A stretch of 32,000 nt of DNA from Trichodesmium erythraeum IMS101 (GTDB lineage Bacteria; Cyanobacteriota; Cyanobacteriia; Cyanobacteriales; Microcoleaceae): positions 2,130,001-2,162,000 of the forward strand of contig NC_008312.1 of the NCBI RefSeq assembly GCF_000014265.1, written 5' to 3'. Below the pieces are notes generated by a model. That model was not told where the DNA came from. It made no database searches and saw nothing but the letters and a program-made list of their open reading frames with translations. The position numbers and the translations under genes are program-made. Numbering within the stretch: the stretch's first letter is position 1; every line of letters begins with the position of its first letter. Positions 6,791 to 32,000 of the stretch are shown piece by piece.

Positions 6791-8167
6791 CGGGACTTTA
6801 GCAAATTTCAAGCCCAAACAAACCCTAAACTCTCTTTATGAGCGGTAAATACGTCGATGTTTTCATCTAACCACTCAACAAAACGATAAGATATTGCGGT
6901 ACGAAATGCTTCTAAAGTATCAGTAAACGTATTTAATGGTTTGTTAGCCCAACGCCTTCTTATACCTCCTGTTAACTGATGCCAGATAATAAATGTATAA
7001 GCACAAAATACTAAAATAAAATGCCTTTTAAGGCTGATTTTATCTCTGACTTGATATTCTCTTAATCCTAACCATCCTTTGGCTTCCCTGTAGAAAACTT
7101 CCACCCAATTTCTTTGAGAATAAGTAGAATATATCCACTCAGGAGTTACATATTTGTCTTCTCTATTAGTGATATAATAGTTAATATCAGTGGCCTCAGA
7201 AAAACTTTTAGCATTCATAACGATAGCTATAGTTTTTTGACCTGACATCCTAGATATTTCTACTTCTAATGTAGCTACCCAAACTTCTCTAGCATTTTTT
7301 GTACTTAGTTGAACTAAGTTGAAAGCTTTCTGAGGTATACTTTCTGCCAGCTTGTCTAATCTAATTTCCTCTTTAATGTCATCTTGTTTTTTAATGATGA
7401 CTTTTCGATTTTTAGCTAATCCTCCTATATAAGTTAAACTTCTTTTCTCTAGTTGATTTAAGAATGATGTATTGTTACCATAGCCAAATTTCAATTAACA
7501 CAATTTCTGGTTGGTGTCCTCTGGACAAACATTGATCTACTAGAGACATTGCACTCGTCTGGTTTCTTGACAAATTCTGGGTCTTTTTTTCCTTTTGGAA
7601 AAGAATCAGCTTTCTGATACAAAGCTATGTCTAAAGGTAGACTTTTAACTCCATCATAAAGATGAGTTGTCACCACGACTACACCATTATCTGTTTTTCC
7701 TATTTCTCCTATATATTGCCGCCCTACTCCTGCAGTAAAATTACCACTTTTTCTGTGGCCTGAATCGTCTATAATTAAAGCAATAGGATCGAGAAGGTTT
7801 TGTTTGGCGACGTTCCCACATTACTTGAAGACGACGCTCATTCACAGCATCTACAGACCAATTTGCTCGAACTAGAAAATGCCGTAATTTGTGGTACGTG
7901 TGACCTACAGTGTTGTTGGCAATTTGAGACAAGTTTTTTCGATCGCTTTCTCAAGAGTAATCCTCCTATATATTCCCTAAACCCTGTTTTTTGGGCTTTT
8001 GTTTTAAAGACATTGTTAAAGCGATCGCACCATCGATGGAAACAAGAGGGCATGGCCACTGAAGTTGTTTCTTTCATCAAACTTTTCCCAGGCCAGTAAT
8101 TAACGTAAAATACATATCAGGTATACATTATACCCTTTTTTTTTACTATTTTTTCACTAAAGTCCCG
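6791..8167 (-). mobile_element. IS701-like (IS4-superfamily) insertion sequence with a frameshifted transposase, 4-bp TSD CTAA
   Basis: Ends cgggactttag (6791-) and ctaaagtcccg (-8167) are inverted repeats. CTAA occurs at 6787-6790 and 8168-8171. ORFs 6808..7494, 7491..7676, 7741..7932 and 7838..8080 are pieces of one transposase (AQKTGFREYIGGLL ... FYREAKGWLGLREYQVRDKISLKRHFILVFCAYTF). Confidence 0.75.
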
Positions 8168-8242
8168 CTAAGTGTTGATGAACTAGAAAAAAATTACTGA
8201 ATTACCCATGACCCAATAGAAGGAACAAGATACCAAATCATT

Positions 8243-9392
8243 AGACATATCCAAGAATCTATAACCCAGTCATAGCAATAAAAACAGGCGAATTAGACTC
8301 GAAGCAAAAAATTGCCCTAAGAAGGAATTAATGGAGGTTTGAAGGGATAAAATCTAATTTCGGCATAAAACTATGGCTCATTCTAACGTTAACTACCTCT
8401 CCAGATTTGGAGGGTTCTATTATTTCTAAAATTAGGGAACCAATTCTCAAACGAACTAATCCACAAACAGTTAATAAGACCGATTTATATCAATTTTTAT
8501 GCAAGCGAAATCTTTCTTTAACCACAAAAAATACTTTTACAACTCGAATTAAATGCTCTACAAAAATTCGATTAGATGATAAAGCTTTATTTTCTTCAAT
8601 TTGATTTTCTGTCAATTTTCCCTTCTTGGGTTTTTTATGGGGAGTTGTAATTTGAGTTTCTCCAATGTAAGCTTTATCACCACTAAAAGTTTGGTTTGTC
8701 TTGAATTTATTTAAAGTTTGGCGACAGATTTTAATATCACTCATTGGTCCAGGTTTTCCAATTACTACATCAATAACATCTTCAGCTTTTGGTAAGATAA
8801 TAAATTGACTTTTTCGAGTATTTCTTTGGATGTTTTCCTGAATAATATTGTTTTTGTTCTTGATAGTCAGAAGGTCTTTCAATTGGTTGTTCAGCAATGT
8901 ATACAATTAATTCATAATCGGTTAACAGTTCAAGAATGCTCTCTTCTTCTTGAAACTTTTTTACTTGTTCTAACAAGCTTGGTGGTAACTCTCCTTCACA
9001 AAGTTTTTGCCAATATGTAAATATATTATGAGCCGTCGACTCACTTACTTGAAAGATAAGTCCTAAAAGTTGAAAACTTATATTATGTCTTAGATAAACT
9101 AACATGAGAACAATTTGTTCTAGAAATGATAATGATCGGATTATTCCCACTTCCTGGTTGATTAATTCTGATTTTTGTTTTTTCAATTTCTTCTTAATTT
9201 TTCTGATTGAGTAATTTTCTCTGGTCTATTAATTGTTCTAGTTGCTTGTAGTCGATTCCTAATAATCTTTTTGTCTGTTTAGGATATTTCTGAATATAGC
9301 CCCAAGTATAACTCTCCATCTGTTGTTTTAAAAATTTATTGTGAAATTTATTATACCATCTTTTTGGATTTGATTCAATTATGGAGATGTCT
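8243..9392 (-). mobile_element. IS5-family (DDE_Tnp_4-type) insertion sequence, transposase split into 3 ORFs, 3-bp TSD ATT
   Basis: Ends agacatatccaagaat (8243-) and ...attatggagatgtct (-9392). ATT occurs at 8240-8242 and 9393-9395. ORFs 9194..9424, 8782..9186 and 8490..8906 join into HTH + DDE (YYSGK..., DKAYIGE, NRIFVEHLIRVVKVF...RFR). Confidence 0.8.
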
Positions 9393-10518: not shown

Positions 10519-13318
10519 GATAAAATACTCACGGGGTGACAAGCAGCTCGAAACTATTGAAAGATAGTGGTTTTCCGGATATTCACTCTGTCAAAAATTG
10601 ACTTTTTTTCTGAGAATGATAATTGTTCTTTTTAAGATCTGGGTTAGGGATTAACTCACATTACCATTTTTGTGTCCACCTTTGTGGTAGCGACAAATCA
10701 CATTATATGGTAACAAAAGTCAGTCCATTTATATAAATAGACCGACCCCAATGGATTTTTTTTCATTATCTGAGTCAGATTTTCAATAATCTTTGACTGA
10801 AGGTCAATTCCAAACTTGAAAAATTTTAGTTTGGTTATTGACTGTTCACAAAACTGTTGAAATAGAAAGACTAGCTGCCTGTTTTCCTTTACCAATTAAA
10901 TATGAGAGTCGCCGGAAACATATACAAAAGACATCTCCAAAAATACTCAAACGCTTATCCTAACTATCTTTAGTGGTGCTATCGCTACTTATGAAGATAG
11001 TTAATTTGTACAGTTTTATGGGCATCAGAGATACTTCGTGTTACTAATTCAAATATTTATTGTACTTTAATTTATTATTTTTATCTCAGCTTTTGATGGT
11101 TTATACTAATATAAAAGAGCCAATTCTTAGTCGCACTAAACCACATATTGTTAAGATTACTTTTTGATAATTATTATCTTTTAATCTGAATCTTTCTCTA
11201 GCAATTCTAAATATTTTAATTAATCTTATTATATGTTCTACAAATATTCTCTTTCTGGCTTTTTCTTGATTTTCTTCTTTGATTTCTAGCGGCATTTCTT
11301 TTTTTCTTGGTTTCTTTTTTGGTGTGGTAGTTCTTTCTATTCCTTCATAAGCTTTATCTCCTTAAAATTTTTGTTTTTTATCAAATTTATCCTGTTGTTT
11401 TCTTAATATCTTTACCTCACTTACTGGACCTTTTTCTCCTACTATTACATCTACTATTTCTGTTCCTTTTGGTGTCGTTATTATTTGATTTTTAAAAGTA
11501 TGATTTTTCTTTTTTCATATTTGATATTTTTCTTGGTCTTTATATTCACTTGGTCTTTCTCTACTTTGTTCTGTACTATCTACAATTAATTCTAATTCTG
11601 TTAATATCTCCTTTACCCATTCCAATTCATTTTCTTTTTTTTTACTTGTTCTAATAAACTTGCTGGCAGTAATTCTCTGAAAATATCTATCCAGTAATGA
11701 AAAATATTATTAGCACTTGATTCACTTATACCAAAGTTAATTCCTAATGTTTGAAAACTTGGTATTTGATGTAAATAAAATAACGTTAAAATTATTTCTT
11801 CTTCCTTTGTTAAATTCTTTTTTCTGACTCCACCTGCTTTAATTAGTCTTTTTTCTGTTTTGGCGATCGCCTCCTTTTTCTCTGATTCTATTATTTGGGC
11901 CTTTGCTATTAATTTTATTAGCTGTTCATAAGTAATGCCAATAATTCTTTTTGTTTCTTTTGGATGATTATAAATATATTCTAAAGTTGGATTCATTTGG
12001 GAGACTTCATACATAAATGGTTTTGATAATTTTACCTTATTTTTTATTTTGGAGATGTCTAAAGATTTTTAACATTATATTTTTGAGCTTTCCCTTGTTG
12101 TGGTTTCCGATGATAATTATGATTTTTAGTCCATAATTTCCCGATGGTAGTCAATTAATTTTTACTATAGATAAGACGCAATGGAAAGATAGTAATATCT
12201 TTGTTATTTCTGTCAGATGTAAAAAACGAGTATTACCTATTTATTGGCTAGTTTTGAATAAAAAAGGCTCTAGTAATTTGGCATAACAAAAATGACTTAT
12301 TAAACTAGTTTTACGGTCATTAAAAAAATATAAGTTTTTATTTATTGCAGATAGATAATTCTATGGTGTAGAGTTATCATACTGGCTAAAAAAGCTAAAA
12401 TTACCTCAAAAAATTTATTTTTTTTCAGGCAAAAAATGAATACTGACTATAAATAAAACGGTTAAAAGTACTATTAATTCACTAATTTAGCCGTATATCC
12501 GGGAAATTCAATATTTTTAAGTAACATTAATATTACTCATAAAAATAATTTAGGTATTTTAATTTAGCTGCCTATTGGAGAAGAAAATATAAAAATAAAA
12601 TGGATAAATAACCTTGGTACTTGTTGACAAATATTGAAAAGATAAAATTATCAAAAATTATCGATCGAGAATGTTTATTGAAGCTATGTTGTCTAGTTGT
12701 AAGAAAGGAAAATATAATCTAGAAGTTAGTCAGGCTAATATACAACGTTTTACTAATTTAATTGTATTAGTAGCCATTGCTTACACTGCTGAATTTTATC
12801 ATGGTAATTATATCAAAAAATTAGGATATCAAAGATATATTTGTCGATAAAAAAAACAGGGCGAAGAGACAGAAAAAATAGTAATTTTTGGGTAGGTATG
12901 TATGGTGAATTATAGGTACTTGCTGGGGATTATTTAGTTTATATTGTTCAACAGATAATAAAGCTTAGTTCTCAAAAAAAGTCTGATTATCAAAGGTAAT
13001 TAAAAGCTCTGTCAATGTTAGATAATATCTAATTACTTACAGTCAATGTCTAGCAATTCATCTGATCATTAAAAAAAAGTCAATTGATTTACATGAATGT
13101 GATGTAATTTTATTATTGAATAATAAATTAACCTAATTTCAGTGATGTGAATTAGCTTTAGCGGAGGATGGTGGCGGCAGCTATACCGCTAACCTACATC
13201 CTAAAAAGAATAATTATTATTCTCAAAAAAAACGTCAATTTTTGACGGATTAAATATCTGGAGAAGCACTATCTATAAATGGTTTTAAGCTGCTTTTAAC
13301 CCCGTGAGGGTAAAATGT
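10519..13318 (+). mobile_element. IS4-family element with ~100-bp terminal inverted repeats, transposase decayed and interrupted
   Basis: 10519-10618 (ggataaaatactcacggggtgacaagcagctcgaaactattgaaagatagtgg...gtcaaaaattgac) is the near-perfect reverse complement of 13222-13318. Frames read ERLAACFPLPIKYESRRKHIQK | (insert) | IFN...IDKTQWKDSNIFVISV..KKRVLPIYWLVLNKKGSSNL ... with many stops. Confidence 0.7.
10929..12060 (-). mobile_element. Second IS5-family (DDE_Tnp_4-type) insertion sequence, decayed, 3-bp TSD AAA
   Basis: Ends agacatctccaaaaat (10929-) and ...ttttggagatgtct (-12060). AAA occurs at 10926-10928 and 12061-12063. ORFs 11613..12014 (HTH part) and 11101..11295 (RIFVEHIIRLIKIFRIARERFRL) are related to the 8243-9392 element. 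Confidence 0.8.
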
Positions 13319-24780: not shown

Positions 24781-25371
24781 ATGATCGCTCAACCCCAAGA
24801 TTATCAAAAAATTACCCTAGAAGAATACCTAGAATGGGAAGCTCAACAGGAATTTCGCCATGAATATGTAGATGGTGAAATTTTAGCTATGGCTTGAGCA
24901 AGTATTCCTCATAATGATATTGCGATTAACTTTTGTACAGCTCTCGTACCTCATCTCCGTCAAAAAGGATGTTGAGTTAATATGTCGGATGTGAAAGTTC
25001 GCGATAGTAAAAGTGATCGTTATTTCTATCCAAATTTAGTTATTTCTTGTAATACTGAAGATTTAAAGTCCCGTCAGTTTATCGAACATCCTACAGTAAT
25101 TTTTGAAGTTCTTTCCCCCAGTACAGAAAAATACGATCGCGGCAATAAGTTTAAATATTATGGTCAAATTTCCAGTTTGCCAGAATATGTTTTAGTAGAC
25201 TCAGAATCAATATCTGTAGAAGTTTTTCAACGCGGCGAGGGAAATTTTTGGCATTATTGCGAATATATAGAAGGTGAGTCAATTACATTATCTAGTATTG
25301 AGTTTACTTCTGCTATTGAAGTTTTATATGCAGGAGTTAACTTGGAAACTGATACTGTCCAGGGAGAATAG
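24781..25371 (+). pseudogene. Uma2-family (DUF820) endonuclease with two in-frame TGA stops
   Basis: ATG 24781 gives MIAQPQDYQKITLEEYLEWEAQQEFRHEYVDGEILAMA. TGA at 24895-24897. Then ASIPHNDIAINFCTALVPHLRQKGC, TGA at 24973-24975, then VNMSDVKV... All in one frame. The track reports only the last third (24982..25371). Confidence 0.75.
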
Positions 25372-25550
25372 AAAGAATGGCCATTATTTGGTCGAGTATT
25401 AATTAAACTATAACGTTATAGTTTTTAGATTTTAGATAAAATAGATAGGGTAGCGATCGCCTAATTTCATTTTAGTTGAGTATTAATTCAACCATTGAAC
25501 TATTGACATTTTAGATAAAGTAAGTTTCAAAGTAGTTTCAATGAGTTCTC

Positions 25551-27032
25551 TCAACCTTTTTTCCGAAATATTGCTAATTCTATTGTAGTCAAAAAAGCTA
25601 ATAAAAAGCGGGCGGAAACTTCCGCTGCATATTGACGAAATTGGTCACTTTTATCATCATCAGCATAATCTTGAACTCCCTTAACAATAATGATGGGAAT
25701 TTCCTCAATTTCTGCTACTGCACCAATAGCTGCACCTTCCATTTCTACTCCTAATATTTTCCGTTGTAATTTTTCGATACGTTGGAAAAGTTGGGGGTCT
25801 TTTTGTACTTTACTTGTAGTAGCAATTACCCCTGTATGAATTTGAGAATTTAAGGGGTCTTTGTAATGTTGGTATTCTAAATATTCTATTCGGTCATTCT
25901 TAATTTCTTTCTGAGCTTTTTCAGTTAATTCCAAGGAGTCTATTTTTAATAATTCTTTTTCTTTTAATTGTTGAATTACTTTTCTCCAATCTGGGCATTC
26001 TGTTGGCCTTTCTGGGTGCTGGTCAGGACGTAAATATTTGTCTGGTTGTTGTTGAAAATCATAGAGTTTGTGGAGTAACCAACGTTCTTGATGATAGTCA
26101 GATTTTGGTCTAGGAATTTGAATAGTATTTAGCCAATCTTGGGGAAATTCTTGAATCATAAATTCCCATTGGCGTTTCAAGTTATAAGTGCGAATATCAT
26201 GGAAGATTTCTTCAGTACGAATTTGTTTATTACCTATTGATTCGTAATGAGTAACAAGTTTACCATAGTCAAATTTAAAGACTCGATTTGCAACAATTAC
26301 ATCACCTAAAAAAGTCTCTTTTTTATTCCCTGCACAAACTCCGGTCATTGCTAAACAACGAGGTTTTAATTCTGAAATAAGTCGAGTGGCTAGATTATTA
26401 GTGTAGTTTTCTCCCATTTCTACAGGACGAGCCGCTACTATATTTAATTGAGTACCGTTTTTATGGTTGAAAGTAGTTTTGTAGTAGGAATAATTGGAAC
26501 TGTCTTTCAATTCTTGCCAACTCTTTCCAGATTGATTATCACAGTTTTTCAGAGCGTTTAATTCATCTTTTAGGGCTGTAATAATTAGAATATCAATAGT
26601 AGGTGTTTCATGAGGTATTTCTATTTTGAATTCTGGTTTTAATTCTTGGGTTTTGAATTCTGCTTTTAATTCTTGGATTTTGATTTTACCGATATTAATA
26701 ATTTTCCGAGCAAACTTTATATCTGTATTCTCTAAGTTATATCTTTCTGGTTGCTTCAAAAGATAATCTAACAAAGCTATTAAAGGATGATAATCTAATC
26801 TTTGACTAGAAACTCGATAGTCTTTAAATTTGGAGACTAAAATAGTAATAAATTCATAAATATTTAAGTTAAAATCAAGACCAGCGATAAAATATTGAGC
26901 AAATCCAGCATTTTTCAAAATAGCTTTTCTTCCTGCTATACCATCAATATTTATCAAAATATTTTCCAATAATCTCTCTATTTTAATCAAATCGTCCTGT
27001 GATATATCTGAGAATATACGGGTGTTTGGCAT
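25551..27032 (-). CDS. Adaptor-like N-terminal domain + PNP/MTAN-fold nucleosidase (phosphorylase superfamily) with a large insert
   Basis: Intact 493-aa ORF. Residues about 146 to the end show the nucleoside phosphorylase fold pattern: IDILIITALKDE, CLAMTGVCAG, GVEMEGAAIG (nt 25734-25751), IIIVKGVQDYAD (DYAD at nt 25659-25670). Residues about 1-125 are homologous to the N-terminus of the neighbouring 321-aa protein. Confidence 0.85.
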   Translation of the reverse strand: MPNTRIFSDISQDDLIKIERLLENILINIDGIAGRKAILKNAGFAQYFIAGLDFNLNIYEFITILVSKFKDYRVSSQRLDYHPLIALLDYLLKQPERYNLENTDIKFARKIINIGKIKIQELKAEFKTQELKPEFKIEIPHETPTIDILIITALKDELNALKNCDNQSGKSWQELKDSSNYSYYKTTFNHKNGTQLNIVAARPVEMGENYTNNLATRLISELKPRCLAMTGVCAGNKKETFLGDVIVANRVFKFDYGKLVTHYESIGNKQIRTEEIFHDIRTYNLKRQWEFMIQEFPQDWLNTIQIPRPKSDYHQERWLLHKLYDFQQQPDKYLRPDQHPERPTECPDWRKVIQQLKEKELLKIDSLELTEKAQKEIKNDRIEYLEYQHYKDPLNSQIHTGVIATTSKVQKDPQLFQRIEKLQRKILGVEMEGAAIGAVAEIEEIPIIIVKGVQDYADDDKSDQFRQYAAEVSARFLLAFLTTIELAIFRKKG

Positions 27033-27108
27033 TTGACTTTTCTTCCATTATTGATGTTTTAAATTTTAGCAGCTATCTACAAAATAAATTGTTGACCTAA
27101 GAAGTATA

Positions 27109-28074
27109 TTAAGGTGTTAAAGTCGTTTCAATGACTTCTCTCAACCTTGTCCATACTACTTCTCCCTTAAATTTTTCCCAGAATGATGAAGGTTGGTCAT
27201 AAAAATAAAGTATTTTTTCATCTAAACAATAAATAACAGGAACTTCGTACCATAATAAATCTAGATTTTGATCGAAAGGATTTTCTTGACGTATTTTAAT
27301 TTTAGTTTCTTTGTCTAAGTTTTTAACCACAGCTATAGCAAAACAAATATTACAAGGTACCCTAGCATTTAAAATTTGTGTGCCAACAGATGAAGTAGCT
27401 TTATCTTTTCCATATTCTAGGCATTGAGTAGAATACTGTCTTAAACTTTTTGTATTTATAGAGGGAAAATAATCGATGATAAAAAACGCATCTCCTCTCA
27501 TATTAAATGCATCGAAATGAAGTTCAAAATCAGTGATTTTTGCTACACGCTCAAATTCAAACTTTCTATCTTTACTTAGAACGTTATTTTGTATATCTAA
27601 AGCACCTTGATTTTTGAGATTTTTCTCAATTTTATTCAAGTAAATATCTAAATTTTGAGTATTACGTTTTATTGTTTCAGGAGATTGATTTTGCAGATAT
27701 ATTTTAATTTGTAAATCTCCCCTTTTCCGAAACGTTGCTAAATATTCAATATCTCGATCATCTAAATGATAAAATTTTTCTCTAGGTTGATTAATTACAT
27801 AGTCTATAATGAATAACAGTGGATGATAATAAGGATTTTGTCGAGAGATTCTATAACTTTTTAAGTCAGCAACTAATATAGTTATAAATTGCTGAGGAGG
27901 TAAATTAAAATCTCGGCCATTTATAAAATAGTCATCTATTCCCGCTAACTGTAAAAATGCTCGCCTTCCAGAAATAGAATCAAATTGCTGAAATAATCTT
28001 TGGAAAATTAATTCCAGTTGTGTAATGTTATCTCGGTTTAAAATAGAAAATATTATTGCTTCAGTTGAACTCAT
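27109..28074 (-). CDS. Adaptor-like N-terminal domain + uncharacterised ~170-aa C-terminal domain
   Basis: Intact 321-aa ORF, 76 bp upstream of and co-directional with 25551..27032. The N-terminal ~110 aa is about 50% identical to that protein over 66 aligned residues. No motif in the C-terminal part that I can assign. Confidence 0.8.
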   Translation of the reverse strand: MSSTEAIIFSILNRDNITQLELIFQRLFQQFDSISGRRAFLQLAGIDDYFINGRDFNLPPQQFITILVADLKSYRISRQNPYYHPLLFIIDYVINQPREKFYHLDDRDIEYLATFRKRGDLQIKIYLQNQSPETIKRNTQNLDIYLNKIEKNLKNQGALDIQNNVLSKDRKFEFERVAKITDFELHFDAFNMRGDAFFIIDYFPSINTKSLRQYSTQCLEYGKDKATSSVGTQILNARVPCNICFAIAVVKNLDKETKIKIRQENPFDQNLDLLWYEVPVIYCLDEKILYFYDQPSSFWEKFKGEVVWTRLREVIETTLTP

Positions 28075-28140: not shown

Positions 28141-28320
28141 GATTGACTCTGGGATTGTTTTGACATCCTCTCCTGCCTAAAGCCGAGGAGATTCTTATCT
28201 ATCAATCAAACAGATTAAGCTGCTTGAAAGACTCAAAGCGGGTTAGCATTTCATCACAATTAGCTGGCTTTTTACGGCAAGTCTTACCTTTGCTCAATGC
28301 TCGTTTTTGTTCAGTCTCCG
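28141..28320 (-). ncRNA. Predicted omega-RNA (reRNA) of TnpB, with the guide read from the flank
   Basis: By analogy with characterised TnpB systems, the scaffold spans the 3' end of tnpB plus the right end (to 28161). The guide would be the adjacent flank, minus-strand 28160->28141 = aacaatcccagagtcaatct. The 5' extent is a guess and there is no transcript evidence. Confidence 0.35.
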
Positions 28321-29575
28321 ACTGACCGTCGGCGACTATATTGAAAAGAGATAATTGTACAGGATTTTCTAATACTTTAGTTTCAATTACTTCAACCTTG
28401 GTTCTCAGTTGAACAACTTCTAAAATATTTACAGCAGCATTAACATCACGGTCATGGTGTGTGCCACATTTCAAACAATTCCACTCTCTAACATTTAATT
28501 CCTTTTTACCTCCACGAAACCCACAATGAGAGCATTTTTGACTCGTAGGTTCCCATCTGTTAATAACTCTAAACTCACGACCATATTTTTGACATTTAGT
28601 TTCTAATAATGTCCTAAACATTCTCCATCCTAAATCAGAAATAGCCTTAGCTAGTTTTCTGTTTTTAACCATACCAGAAACATTTAAGTCTTCTAATACT
28701 ATTGTGTCGTATTCGCGAATTAACTTAGTGGATAGTTGATGAAGAAAATCAGTTCTAATGTCTGTGATTTTAGCATGAAGTTTAGCTACCCTTAATTTAG
28801 CTTTTTCTCTACGCTTACTACCTGGTATTTTCTGAGCAAGCTGGCGTTGAAACTTAGCTAATTTTTTGAGATTTTTCTTAAGTGGTTTAGGAGCTTCAAA
28901 TTTCTGACCATTATTCAATGTAGCAAAAGTAGAAATTCCCAAATCAATTCCAATAGAATTATCAGTTTTGGGTAATGTTTCAGCAGATGTTTCTATTACA
29001 AAACTCAGAAAATATCTATTAGCTGAATCCTTAATTATTGTGACTGATGTAGGTTCAATAGGTAAGGGTCTTGACCAAGCAACTTTTATTTTACCTATTT
29101 TGGCTAAATATACCTTATCTTGACTTAGCTTAAACCCTATTTTTGTAAACCTAGCAGTCTGTTTTGACTTGCGCTTCTTGAATTTAGGAGATTTAATTTT
29201 CATTCCTTTACGCTTACCTGTTGCTGAGTTAAAAAAGTTTTGATAAGCTTGATGTAAATCGTTTAAGGATTGTTGCAATGGAACTACGGATATTTCGGTT
29301 AGCCAACTTCTCTCAATTGTCTTTTTAGCTTGAGTAATAAAGACTTTTTGAAGTTCGGAATTAGTTGGCTTTTTCTTAGTTGATTTAAATTCTTGAATAC
29401 AATAGGCTAACCCATCATTCCAAACTACTCTTGTACATCCAAATAATTTAGCTAAATTAATTTTTTGTATAAGGTTTGGATAGCACCTATATTTATATCT
29501 TAGTTTCAATTTTTTGAGTCCTATCAATTATTTACACTAAATATTAACAGCGTAGCTCTTTGAGATTTATATTAT
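28161..29575 (-). mobile_element. IS200/IS605-family element carrying tnpB only (IS1341-like, non-autonomous)
   Basis: The right end terminates ...ggatgTCAA (plus-strand ttgacatcc at 28161-28169) with a subterminal hairpin. It shares 14 nt with the orphan end at 1683. The left boundary is inferred at 29575/29576, where homology of the flank to 27684-27740 stops right after GTCAAT (minus-strand reading). No tnpA present. Confidence 0.75.
28202..29527 (-). CDS. tnpB: TnpB RNA-guided endonuclease (OrfB_IS605 family), apparently intact
   Basis: 441-aa ORF with YKYRCYPN at the N-terminus. RuvC triad context: IGIDLGIS (D), IVLEDLNVSGM (E), HDRDVNAAVNI (D). Zinc finger CSHCG...CLKCG. The start is uncertain: TTG 29527 or TTG 29509. 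Confidence 0.9.
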   Translation of the reverse strand: MIGLKKLKLRYKYRCYPNLIQKINLAKLFGCTRVVWNDGLAYCIQEFKSTKKKPTNSELQKVFITQAKKTIERSWLTEISVVPLQQSLNDLHQAYQNFFNSATGKRKGMKIKSPKFKKRKSKQTARFTKIGFKLSQDKVYLAKIGKIKVAWSRPLPIEPTSVTIIKDSANRYFLSFVIETSAETLPKTDNSIGIDLGISTFATLNNGQKFEAPKPLKKNLKKLAKFQRQLAQKIPGSKRREKAKLRVAKLHAKITDIRTDFLHQLSTKLIREYDTIVLEDLNVSGMVKNRKLAKAISDLGWRMFRTLLETKCQKYGREFRVINRWEPTSQKCSHCGFRGGKKELNVREWNCLKCGTHHDRDVNAAVNILEVVQLRTKVEVIETKVLENPVQLSLFNIVADGQSETEQKRALSKGKTCRKKPANCDEMLTRFESFKQLNLFD

Positions 29576-29600: not shown

Positions 29601-30512
29601 TTATAAGTCTCCTTTTTTCCGAAATCTTGCTAATTCTATTGTAGTCAAAAAAGCTAATAAAAAGCGGGCGGAAACTTCCGCTGCATATTGACGAAATTTA
29701 TCACTTTTATCATAATCAGCATAATCTTGAACTCCCTTGACAATAATTATGGGAATTTCCTCAATTTCTGCTACTGCACCAATAGCTGCACCTTCCATTT
29801 CTACTCCTAATATTTTCCGTTGTAATTTTTCGATACGTTGGAAAAGTTGGGGGTCTTTTTGTACTTTATTTGTAGTAGCAATTACCCCTGTATGAATTTG
29901 TGGATATGATGGGTCTTTATAGCGTTGTTCTTCTAAATATTCTAGTCGTTCATTGTTAATTTCTTTCTGAGCTTTTTCGGTTAATTCCAAGGAGTCTGTT
30001 TTTAATAATTCTTTTTCTCTTAATTGTTGAATTACTTTTCTCTAATCTGGGCATTCTGTTGGTCTTTCTGGGTGCTGGTCAGGACGTGAATATTTGTATG
30101 GTTGTTGTTTAAAATCATAGAGTTTGTGGAGTAACCAACGTTCTTGATGATAGTCAGATTTTGGTCTAGGAGTTTGAATAGTATTTAGCCAATCTTGGGG
30201 AAATTCTTGAATGATAAATTCCCATTGGCGTTTCAAGTTATAAGTGCGAATATCATGGAATATTTCTTCAGTAAAAATTTGTTTATCACCTATTGATTCG
30301 TAATGAGTAACAAGTTTACCATAGTCAAATTTAAAGACTCGATTTGCAACAATTACATCACCTAAAAAAGTCTTTTTTTTATTACCTGCACAAACTCCGG
30401 TCATTGCTAAACAACGAGGTTTTAATTCTGAAATAAGTCGAGTGACTAGATTATTAGTGTAGTTTTCTCCCATTTCTACAGGACGAGCTGCTGCTATATT
30501 TAATCGCGTACC
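29601..30512 (-). pseudogene. 5'-truncated, nonsense-bearing paralogue of the nucleosidase gene 25551..27032
   Basis: ORFs 30042..30473 and 29601..29990 are about 93% identical in protein to the C-terminal two-thirds of the 493-aa protein. TGG->TAG at 30043-30045 (ECPD*RKVIQQ versus ECPDWRKVIQQ). Homology starts abruptly at about 30512. The adaptor domain and the first part of the PNP fold are missing. Confidence 0.85.
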
Positions 30513-32000
30513 ATATATCTAAGTTTTGATAATAAATCTATATTTATTACATTATCAATTAAACTCTTTATATTAACTTCATTATAAGGATGATTCTCAC
30601 AGGTAGTTTTTAGTCTACCATTACGAATCCATTCTTTTAATTTTTCAAGTTTATAAAAATGTGGATTCTGGCTATTTTTACAAGCAGCACAAGTACAAGG
30701 AAATAAGTGATTATATTTGAGTCGATTATTATAGGAACTGTGAATTTTATCTAATAGGTAAGTTACGAGAGTCATTAAAGCCCGTTTTTGTCGTCCAGAA
30801 ACCCTAATTTTTATTTCTCTTCTGTCGTAATATTCAATTACCTCTGCTCTGGTTTCATTTTGCTTGATAATAACTCCCCTTTTCCAAACATATTTCTGTT
30901 GTTCAATATCTCGGTGCATATCTACAATAAACTGAGTGATAATTCCTCTGGGCATAAATTTGTAGGTGTAACGTAAAATCAAATTGTTATTTTCATCCCA
31001 GTCATATTCTGGTTGATTTTCTGTTAAAAGTTGAGGGGCAATATAGGTCTGAGAATTACCAAGAATTTTATAACATAGTTTAAATCTAATCATTAACTGG
31101 AGTAGTTCATCGCGCATATCCACATATTTTTCTTCATTCCAGATATTGGTTAAATCATCTTTGGTGAATTTGCCGAAGTTATTATAAACTGTCGGATTAT
31201 CTAAGATTTTATAAACTGCCGCTATTCCCCATTCTGGTTTGAGAATAACTGTTTTATTTAACAGTGGGTTATCCTGAAAATGAAGACAAATTCCTAAGTC
31301 ATGTAAATAGCGACTTAACTGTAATTTATACTCCAATTTTGTCAAGCCATTTTGTTTACAAATAGATAAATATTCTTCTAGACTAATATAGTTACGGGAG
31401 TCTAATTCTAAGATTTCCCGGACTTGTTTCCAAGTTTTAGGTAAACTACTGCCAATATGGGGTAATTCACTAATATGATGTTCGATTTCTCTGATAATTT
31501 CTTCTAAACCGCGATTAGTTTCAAGGTTGGTAGCTAAGATTTCTTTAATGTTAGTAAATTGCCCTTGCAATCCCCGTTGATTAATTTCTCGTTGCCGTTC
31601 ATGTTTCTCATTTTTCACAATTAATAAGGGGCTATTATCGCTTAATAATTCTACTACATTGAGCCAATAATAAAAGTCTGTATCTTCTTTGCGAGTATCA
31701 ACGACAAGGATATATAGAGAGCGTTTTGTTAAGAAAAATTGGTGGGTAGTGTGATAAATTTCTTGTCCGCCAAAATCCCAAATATTTATTTGAAAGTCAT
31801 TTTGGTTTTTTGTCTTAAAGTTGTACTGATAAACTTCAATTCCTTTGGTTGTATCTTCATCTTTGAGTTGATAGTTTGGGTTGATAATTTTATTAGCTAA
31901 AGCTGTTTTACCAGCTCCAGCTTCTCCAACAATTAGTAATTTAGCTTCACAGATATAATCTATTCCTTTTTCTGGAGGAAACTCTGCCAAAAACTTTTTA
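30500..32000 (-). CDS. Roc-COR (ROCO-type) GTPase, partial: N-terminal part lies beyond the window edge
   Basis: P-loop GEAGAGKT (31904-31927), switch II DFGGQ (31763-31777), then about 300 aa of COR-like sequence (LPKTW..VR..L, YLHDLGICLHF, ILKPEW, APQLL). The reading frame stays open from 31990 to base 32000 (..KKFLAEFPPEKG), so the track's M at 31990 is a TTG inside the ORF. Confidence 0.8.
   Translation of the reverse strand, partial: KKFLAEFPPEKGIDYICEAKLLIVGEAGAGKTALANKIINPNYQLKDEDTTKGIEVYQYNFKTKNQNDFQINIWDFGGQEIYHTTHQFFLTKRSLYILVVDTRKEDTDFYYWLNVVELLSDNSPLLIVKNEKHERQREINQRGLQGQFTNIKEILATNLETNRGLEEIIREIEHHISELPHIGSSLPKTWKQVREILELDSRNYISLEEYLSICKQNGLTKLEYKLQLSRYLHDLGICLHFQDNPLLNKTVILKPEWGIAAVYKILDNPTVYNNFGKFTKDDLTNIWNEEKYVDMRDELLQLMIRFKLCYKILGNSQTYIAPQLLTENQPEYDWDENNNLILRYTYKFMPRGIITQFIVDMHRDIEQQKYVWKRGVIIKQNETRAEVIEYYDRREIKIRVSGRQKRALMTLVTYLLDKIHSSYNNRLKYNHLFPCTCAACKNSQNPHFYKLEKLKEWIRNGRLKTTCENHPYNEVNIKSLIDNVINIDLLSKLRYMVRD

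Follow-up and report, generated by a model that had tools for sequence, protein, structure and literature searches.

EAD8 modules on two adjacent proteins of Trichodesmium erythraeum IMS101 and their linkage to an iSTAND2-MoxR-vWA system

Effector-associated domains (EADs) are small, non-catalytic domains, of which one copy is carried by a core component and others by the effectors of an NTP-dependent conflict system, and they are predicted to couple core and effectors by homotypic contacts, in analogy to the adaptors of the Death fold (Kaur, Burroughs, Iyer and Aravind, eLife 2020; PMC7159879). Neighbouring EAD copies have been described as tending to be mutual closest relatives, as a tendency and not as a strict criterion. 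EAD8 was classed with those EADs which "primarily recruit other effectors" (PMC7159879) and has been reported on STAND-FGS proteins and, in MoxR-vWA ternary systems, on the third component iSTAND2 (Kaur, Iyer, Burroughs and Aravind, eLife 2021; PMC8195603); its homotypic binding is a prediction from comparative genomics and not an experimental result (PMC7159879, PMC8195603). We analysed a stretch of 32,000 nucleotides (the window) from the cyanobacterium Trichodesmium erythraeum IMS101 (contig NC_008312.1, positions 2,130,001 to 2,162,000), in which the adjoining genes Tery_1423 and Tery_1424 encode proteins with a common N-terminal EAD8, followed by a PNP domain in the former and by a domain here called X in the latter. 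EAD8 probably acts here as a coupling adaptor, with Tery_1424 (EAD8-X) and Tery_1423 (EAD8-PNP) as accessory effectors of the adjoining iSTAND2-MoxR-vWA system.

The N-terminal module of Tery_1423 and Tery_1424

The two genes are divided as follows (positions are those of the window).

25551-27032, minus strand: Tery_1423, an intact open reading frame (ORF) of 493 aa
26658-27032, minus strand: EAD8 of Tery_1423, residues 1-125, with the PF19961 match at 12-101
26592-26657, minus strand: linker between EAD8 and PNP in Tery_1423, holding most of a 27-nt tandem duplication
25551-26591, minus strand: PNP_UDP_1 payload of Tery_1423, residues 148-493 and the stop codon, with PF01048 at 148-481
27109-28074, minus strand: Tery_1424, an intact ORF of 321 aa adjoining Tery_1423
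27691-28074, minus strand: EAD8 of Tery_1424, residues 1-128, with the PF19961 match at 17-94
27109-27690, minus strand: payload X of Tery_1424, residues 129-321 and the stop codon, an alpha/beta domain with no family match

About 120 N-terminal residues are common to both proteins. BLASTP aligned them in a single significant segment (residues 6-120 of Tery_1423 with 8-124 of Tery_1424; 46 of 117 positions identical, or 39%, with 64% positives and E 1e-24), and because all remaining segments had E > 3, the C-termini are unrelated. A first-pass annotation, made from the sequence, had described two adjacent proteins that share an N-terminal module and then diverge, and the alignment bears this out; its count of 34 identities in 66 positions is exact (its strings of 66 residues start from residues 32 and 34), and as many identities were reached in none of 100,000 shuffles, the maximum being 17. 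The span 26657-28074 consists of the EAD8 part of Tery_1423 (26658-27032), an intergenic spacer of 76 nt and the entire Tery_1424.

The shared module is a member of the catalogued family EAD8 (Pfam PF19961, gathering score 27 bits), for which Tery_1423 scored 59.4 bits and Tery_1424 44.6 bits; the comparison with the EAD and death-like families of Pfam, proposed together with the original observation, thus returned EAD8 for both proteins, and Tery_1424 is already labelled "Effector-associated domain-containing protein" in UniRef. The observation was therefore correct but largely ordinary. The family is marked by a near-invariant Y-H-P motif, of which H73 and P74 are invariant across 40 diverse sequences.

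A search of 1.84 billion representative proteins with a profile of the module (E <= 1e-3) found it in only 88 clusters, and 64 of the 65 longer matches also fit Pfam EAD8. The partner domains among these 65 were Trypsin_2 (35), PNP_UDP_1 (5), CHAT (3), TIR_2 (3), AAA_35 (2) and EAD1 (2), with single occurrences of SIR2, SEFIR, SAVED, NB-ARC, nSTAND6, bDLD1 and EAD10; TPR and iSTAND/iSTAND2 are likewise among the partners of EAD8. Typical arrangements are SEFIR-STAND-EAD8, EAD8-TIR-SAVED, SIR2-bDLD1-EAD8-trypsin and, in Mastigocoleus, NB-ARC/nSTAND1-EAD8. EAD8 is rare, is found mainly in filamentous cyanobacteria and similar organisms, and is carried by NTPases as well as by diverse effectors; the first-pass annotation had raised the possibility that the module is confined to the two paralogues, which is not the case, as the 88 clusters include STAND/NB-ARC NTPases, iSTAND/iSTAND2 proteins and varied effectors. 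A homologue search by word index, with only the EAD8 module as query, gave 7 near-identical fragments and no others, and was uninformative on distribution.

The AlphaFold2 (AF2) model of the Tery_1423 EAD8 alone is compact and all-helical (predicted local distance difference test score, pLDDT, 92; predicted template modelling score, pTM, 0.85), with six predicted helices at residues 12-26, 31-42, 46-50, 58-71, 83-93 and 102-129. The model of full-length Tery_1424, built from a 34-sequence alignment (mean pLDDT 84), is likewise all helical over residues 14-128, with predicted helices at 14-28, 34-43, 48-52, 60-72, 85-94, 98-101 and 106-128 and a pLDDT of at least 90 in most 10-residue blocks of the EAD8 region. 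Both models agree with the helical character that had been predicted from the sequence, and the basic, amphipathic stretch noted at the end of the module is its long final helix (residues 102-129 in the Tery_1423 model). In Tery_1423 this helix continues into the linker with the 27-nt duplication, a tandem direct repeat within the coding sequence (26624-26650 and 26651-26677, 93% identical) that encodes QELKAEFKT/QELKPEFKI.

A Foldseek comparison of the Tery_1423 EAD8 model with the PDB gave nothing below E 0.6 (best E 0.63), and the matches listed are generic helical bundles. The model is neither a helix-turn-helix (HTH) nor a nucleotide-binding fold and matches no known DNA-binding or enzymatic fold, consistent with the earlier view that the module is not an enzyme. 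Entries of the Death fold were reached only at E 2.7-6 (the death domain of DR3 at E 6, the pyrin-like domain of CENP-N at 2.7-6), and a published HHpred table ties EAD8 to EAD1, EAD2 and EAD5, not directly to Death domains in the PDB (PMC8195603). EAD8 thus follows the same logic as Death, CARD, DED and Pyrin domains, that of a small helical module on a receptor or switch and on effectors, with a proposed homotypic coupling, but it has no significant structural or sequence similarity to them, and the likeness is one of analogy.

Compared with the EAD8 family at large, the copies in the window show no essential difference: they match its hidden Markov model (HMM), are small, predicted to be all-helical, non-catalytic and N-terminal to variable effectors, and they occur in a multicellular cyanobacterium in linkage with a MoxR-vWA ternary system. 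Unlike the published tendency, they are not each other's closest relatives. The architectures EAD8+PNPase and EAD8+X were not found in the accessible part of the supplementary tables of PMC8195603.

The adjoining ternary system and its relatives

Genes beyond position 32000 were read from longer Trichodesmium contigs (L001-L006). The extended locus begins with a PNP protein of 359 aa (Tery_1432), followed by the 357-aa Tery_1431, a MoxR-type AAA_5 ATPase, a vWA gene and the 748-aa vWA-L-Roc-COR protein Tery_1428; then come two PNP fragments, TnpB, EAD8-X and EAD8-PNP, and, after these, Uma2 and DHH-CBS-PolyA-polymerase. Two components outside the two EAD8 genes are located as follows.

30500-32000, minus strand: 3' two-thirds of Tery_1428 (vWA-L, Roc/AP-GTPase, COR-A/COR-B; Pfam Roc, COR-A and COR-B), running off the window
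L001 1894-2190 and 1527-1820, beyond window position 32000: EAD8-like module of about 95 residues, at the N-terminus of iSTAND2 and at the C-terminus of the PNP protein, respectively

The source tables of PMC8195603, from which the iSTAND2 and vWA-L assignments are taken, list Tery_1431 (WP_011611104.1) as "??+iSTAND2 -> MoxR" and Tery_1428 (ABG50724.1) as "vWA-L+AP-GTPase+COR", and Tery_1423 and Tery_1424 therefore lie at the end of a catalogued ternary system of the iSTAND2 type. The genes for iSTAND2, MoxR, vWA and vWA-L fused to an effector are contiguous, as judged from the gene order on L001 and the Pfam matches to AAA_5 and Roc/COR; the vWA gene itself scored 23.5 bits for VWA_CoxE, below the cut-off of 26.4. 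In the accessible part of the supplementary tables of that study, Tery_1423 and Tery_1424 are not connected to the ternary system.

The N-terminal ~95 residues of Tery_1431 are clearly homologous to the C-terminal ~95 residues of Tery_1432, and the module on iSTAND2 had no match in Pfam, NCBIfam or PADLOC. An HMM of the Trichodesmium and Okeania iSTAND2 family aligned end to end (E 1e-47 to 1e-43) with the proteins P0057, P0054 and P0064, which bear a bona fide N-terminal Pfam EAD8 and of which P0057 and P0054 were taken as EAD8+iSTAND2 orthologues. In a multiple alignment the Trichodesmium iSTAND2 module is collinear with EAD8, save for an 8-residue deletion that takes out the Y-x-VS...YHP loop. 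An HMM of this module alone, run on 276 mixed sequences, retrieved genuine EAD8s only (P0052 at 8.7e-7, P0069 at 1.7e-4, others down to 0.02), all correctly positioned, with a best reversed-sequence score of 0.11, and hhalign gave a probability of 68% over 78 columns against the EAD8 profile. On this sequence evidence we assign the "??" N-terminus of Tery_1431 as a degenerate EAD8 that has lost the YHP loop. The extended locus therefore holds four modules of the EAD8 family in two sub-types, a degenerate one on the 359-aa PNP protein and on iSTAND2 and a canonical one on X and on PNP. The N-terminal 252 residues of Tery_1428 were also considered as an EAD8 and rejected, as they matched neither Pfam EAD8 nor our own EAD8 HMM and correspond to vWA-L according to PMC8195603.

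With the described iSTAND2 ternary systems (PMC8195603) the locus shares the gene order, that is, a third component with an N-terminal adaptor, then MoxR, vWA and a separate gene for vWA-L plus effector, as well as additional EAD-tagged effectors in the operon. It differs in the partner linked to the adaptor, which is usually a trypsin-like peptidase and in IMS101 is a PNP nucleosidase, and in that the canonical copies of EAD8 belong to effectors or, in relatives, to the vWA-L protein, and not to iSTAND2.

Linkage of EAD8-X and EAD8-PNP with components of this kind recurs in other filamentous cyanobacteria.

L012, Okeania sp. SIO3B5: EAD8-X, stand-alone X, EAD8-PNP, PNP-[EAD8-like], [EAD8-like]-iSTAND2, MoxR, vWA
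L007, JGI contig (Okeania): the order of L012 without PNP-[EAD8-like] and with vWA-L added at the end
L009, Mastigocoleus testarum: STAND-EAD8, vWA, a 1075-aa STAND-TPR, EAD8-X, EAD8-EAD1-PNP
L011, Scytonema hofmannii: EAD8-TPR, EAD8-trypsin and EAD8-only; further along, EAD8-X directly upstream of EAD8+iSTAND and an AAA fragment

A further Okeania locus (L008, from Okeania sp. SIO2C2) also links EAD8-X and EAD8-PNP with the ternary system and has the same Uma2 and DHH-CBS-PolyA_pol flank as IMS101. Here the gene that follows vWA (L008 13763-16546) encodes a single protein of 927 aa with the architecture vWA-L-PNP-EAD8-X, whose residues 1-273 correspond to the vWA-L part of Tery_1428 (73% identity), residues 239-600 to the PNP part of Tery_1423 (76%) and residues 607-925 to Tery_1424 (71%). 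A Trichodesmium-like protein from a JGI metagenome (P0140, 633 aa, N-terminally partial), which belongs to the 90%-identity cluster of Tery_1424, consists of the C-terminal end of vWA-L followed by LRR-EAD8-X. The slot between vWA-L and EAD8-X thus differs by strain, being filled by PNP, by LRR or, in IMS101, by Roc-COR. Together with STAND-EAD8 of Mastigocoleus and EAD8+iSTAND of Scytonema, the vWA-L-...-EAD8-X proteins of Okeania and P0140 place EAD8 on core components in relatives; as the canonical EAD8-X is in these cases the tail of the core vWA-L protein, it might serve as a dock for a separate EAD8-PNP. In a protein from an ENA metagenome (P0199, 610 aa), a single hybrid EAD8-like module forms the direct link between the 359-aa PNP and iSTAND2. 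This module apparently arose by recombination between the two adaptor copies, and the architecture of the protein corresponds to the Rosetta-stone pattern expected of an adaptor pair.

Payloads and recombination scars

The PNP domain of Tery_1423 (PF01048, E 1.4e-18, residues 148-481) also matched the PADLOC models PDC-M60C (5.7e-41) and 'Effector, PN-superfamily' (7.9e-29), and its best PDB sequence matches are MTA/SAH nucleosidases. Inspection of the translation showed that the EMEG and QDYAD motifs are kept near the C-terminus. PNP domains of this general kind are ATP/dATP nucleosidase effectors in CBASS, Avs, pAgo and Detocs (bioRxiv 10.1101/2023.01.24.525353), and in the Aravind papers domains like PNPase are seen partly as producers of a signal and not as terminal effectors (PMC7159879, PMC8195603). 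With Cap17 (CBASS), DtcC (Detocs) and the PNPs of Avs and pAgo, Tery_1423 has in common a PF01048 domain on an immune-type adaptor, a non-housekeeping context and a PADLOC effector match; it differs from the Cap17/DtcC type by an insertion of ~100 residues relative to the Pfam model (334 residues on a 233-position profile), and the likeness is at the level of the domain.

The X domain (~190 residues) had no match in Pfam, NCBIfam or PADLOC and no PDB sequence match. Its 33 homologues occur in filamentous cyanobacteria, fused to EAD8, to bDLD1 (P0030) or to other unassigned N-termini, or stand-alone at 182 aa, and from these contexts X behaves as a payload of the EAD network. The topology in the AF2 model of Tery_1424 (alpha-beta-beta-beta-alpha-beta-alpha-beta-beta) is compatible with a PD-(D/E)xK core (alpha-beta-beta-beta-alpha-beta), and the Foldseek matches, all of them weak (best E 0.065 in the PDB and 0.008 in BFVD), were recurrently of the restriction-endonuclease fold (the small subunit of BspD6I, BbvCI, Can2, MspJI, EndoMS, NucC, Cas4 and UL24). 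The 34-sequence X alignment contains no conserved D...(D/E)xK motif; conserved polar residues include E184, R193, D/E195, N265, D272, E305 and K309. As the structural matches are weak and thematic and the catalytic motif is not conserved, X was not assigned as a nuclease.

In Okeania a stand-alone X paralogue that carries no adaptor lies between EAD8-X and EAD8-PNP; the IMS101 window has no counterpart. Possible roles of the paralogue are those of a decoy, of an immunity factor or of an oligomerisation partner.

L007 7707-8255, L008 7424-7972 and L012 5141-5689: stand-alone X paralogue, 182 aa

Around the two EAD8 genes, the window retains several traces of rearrangement.

29611-30512, minus strand: PNP pseudogene, truncated on its 5' side, that duplicates the final 902 nt of the Tery_1423 coding sequence
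28202-29527, minus strand: TnpB of the IS605 OrfB type (Pfam OrfB_IS605, Cas12f1-like_TNB, HTH_OrfB_IS605)
25524-25558, minus strand: remnant of 35 nt from the 3' end of an X gene, a direct repeat (D2) with 27114-27148, 89% identical
24982-25371, plus strand: N-terminally truncated gene of the Uma2 family, 129 aa, profile positions 59-160 of 172; marks the right border of the locus, which is conserved

The PNP pseudogene is 95.5% identical to 25555-26456 without gaps and differs from Tery_1423 by 26 nonsynonymous and 11 synonymous codons, and it carries an in-frame change of TGG to TAG; the 5' part of the PNP domain is absent. It begins 10 nt before the stop codon of Roc-COR, in another frame, and was called as ORFs of 143 and 129 aa. 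Relative to the Okeania fusion, Roc-COR sits where the 5' part of PNP would be, and the pseudogene is probably the remnant of an Okeania-like vWA-L-PNP fusion whose 5' part was displaced by Roc-COR. TnpB, which has no adjacent TnpA, separates the pseudogene from EAD8-X, and its flanks are contiguous in one ORF in Okeania SIO2C2. At the other end, the X remnant covers the last ~11 codons and spans the stop codon of EAD8-PNP; in another frame it reads RLRELIETTL, as compared with RLREVIETTL at the end of Tery_1424, and the block over which the two PNP copies match ends at 25555, exactly where the remnant lies. This suggests that the remnant is a recombination scar left when a PNP payload replaced an X payload. 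The scars are direct evidence at the DNA level of payload exchange behind constant EAD8 adaptors and in the slot after vWA-L. The Uma2 orthologue at the same position in Okeania has 197 aa.

The remaining window contains housekeeping genes and transposase fragments. Fragmentary ORFs of DDE transposases (DDE_Tnp_1, DDE_Tnp_4, HTH_Tnp_4) at 6808-9186 and 11613-12014 (minus strand) lie in long stretches of low G+C content (26-30%) with few ORFs, which fits the pseudogene- and repeat-rich genome of Trichodesmium. Rfam gave no RNA family in the window.

Interpretation of the locus

If EAD8 couples the two proteins to the ternary system, triggering of the sensor or switch components would cause EAD8 domains to bind one another, according to the published 'EAD principle', and would thereby bring the PNP and X payloads into the assembled iSTAND2-MoxR-vWA complex. 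The PNP might then act as a nucleosidase and either deplete ATP/dATP, like the immune PNP effectors, or make a nucleotide-derived signal; X would be a second effector of uncharacterised chemistry, and the whole may serve defence or programmed death. In relatives, the EAD8-X tail of the vWA-L protein would be the docking site for EAD8-PNP, and in IMS101 this tail would have been detached by a payload swap, in which Roc-COR displaced PNP, and by the insertion of TnpB. The first-pass annotation had also seen in the module an adaptor or homotypic-interaction domain ahead of variable payloads, which the EAD8 family match supports; the homotypic docking is what we infer from it.

Several points weigh against this interpretation. 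The binding of EAD8 to EAD8 is a prediction of comparative genomics and not of experiment, and no canonical EAD8 is present on a core component within the extended locus of IMS101; the module on iSTAND2 is without the Y-x-VS...YHP loop and only weakly similar to the EAD8s of the window (E 0.18 with the module-only HMM). The adjacent EAD8s are only 38-39% identical to each other, and that of Tery_1423 is 43-70% identical to copies from other genomes. The link of the Tery_1423 PNP to the Cap17 clade is one of domain content (PF01048, PADLOC) and not of phylogeny, and with its PNP pseudogene, TnpB insertion and truncated Uma2 the locus is scarred, such that the system of IMS101 may be partly non-functional.

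Three other explanations are less well supported than the adaptor reading. EAD8-X and EAD8-PNP might form a self-contained pair, in which X senses, regulates or inhibits the PNP through an EAD8 heterodimer and the ternary system is a mere neighbour in a defence island. The order EAD8-X then EAD8-PNP does recur in Trichodesmium, in Okeania (with the X paralogue in between) and in Mastigocoleus, and the lack of a canonical EAD8 on the IMS101 core proteins would be expected; we nevertheless regard such a pair as unlikely, since its genes adjoin MoxR-vWA or STAND components in every locus examined, the EAD8-X of Scytonema is next to EAD8+iSTAND with no PNP nearby, X is also found on bDLD1, on other N-termini and stand-alone, and EAD8-X belongs to the same polypeptide as the vWA-L core in Okeania SIO2C2 and P0140. 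It appears quite unlikely that EAD8 is no protein-protein adaptor but gates the payload behind it by autoinhibition or by sensing a ligand (a nucleotide signal, a peptide or a nucleic acid): several EAD8 proteins occur per locus, usually with one on a core NTPase or iSTAND, and direct fusions substitute for the adaptor pair, both of which are hallmarks of coupling adaptors (PMC7159879). The near-invariant Y-H-P would be as fitting for a binding pocket as for an interface, and no structural homologues constrain the function of EAD8, but the model has neither an HTH nor a nucleotide-binding fold.

The scars themselves (PNP pseudogene, TnpB insertion, 35-nt X remnant and truncated Uma2, all within 7 kb) could also mean that Tery_1423 and Tery_1424 are decaying leftovers of a rearranged system with no current function, the module being the historical trace of a duplication. 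We consider this very unlikely, because both ORFs are intact, their orthologues are intact in Okeania and Mastigocoleus, and the EMEG and QDYAD motifs of the PNP are retained. Moreover, many environmental Trichodesmium assemblies contain both genes in a form that is identical or at least 90% identical (the respective 90%-identity clusters have 113 and 47 members), and both are carried by identical environmental Trichodesmium contigs of 71-94 kb.

Beyond the role of EAD8 as a coupling adaptor, a more speculative extension, which we put forward tentatively and hold to be doubtful as a whole, is that the locus contains two orthogonal EAD8 specificities, one of the degenerate pair (PNP to iSTAND2) and one of the canonical pair (EAD8-PNP to the ancestral EAD8-X tail of vWA-L), that the slot between vWA-L and EAD8-X is a hot spot of payload recombination, and that X is a new effector or sensor of an apoptosis-like network. 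If this were true, the locus would provide a natural setting for studying the evolution of adaptor specificity and of payload shuffling in the immune signalling of prokaryotes.

EAD8 is already curated and published and the surrounding system is catalogued, so that no new kind of element is described here; the additions are modest, namely that the "??" adaptor is assigned, vWA-L-...-EAD8-X fusions and scars of payload swaps are described, and X is delineated. EADs, which have been proposed as bacterial equivalents of the Death, CARD and Pyrin adaptors, are defined by comparative genomics only. The locus offers a compact and well-conserved example of EAD8 in Trichodesmium, a cultured and ecologically important cyanobacterium, in which fusion proteins of relatives predict the binding partners and scars in the DNA record the exchange of payloads behind a constant adaptor. 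With its canonical and degenerate EAD8s, natural fusions and scars, it therefore lends itself to a first biochemical test of the 'EAD principle' and to assigning a function to X.

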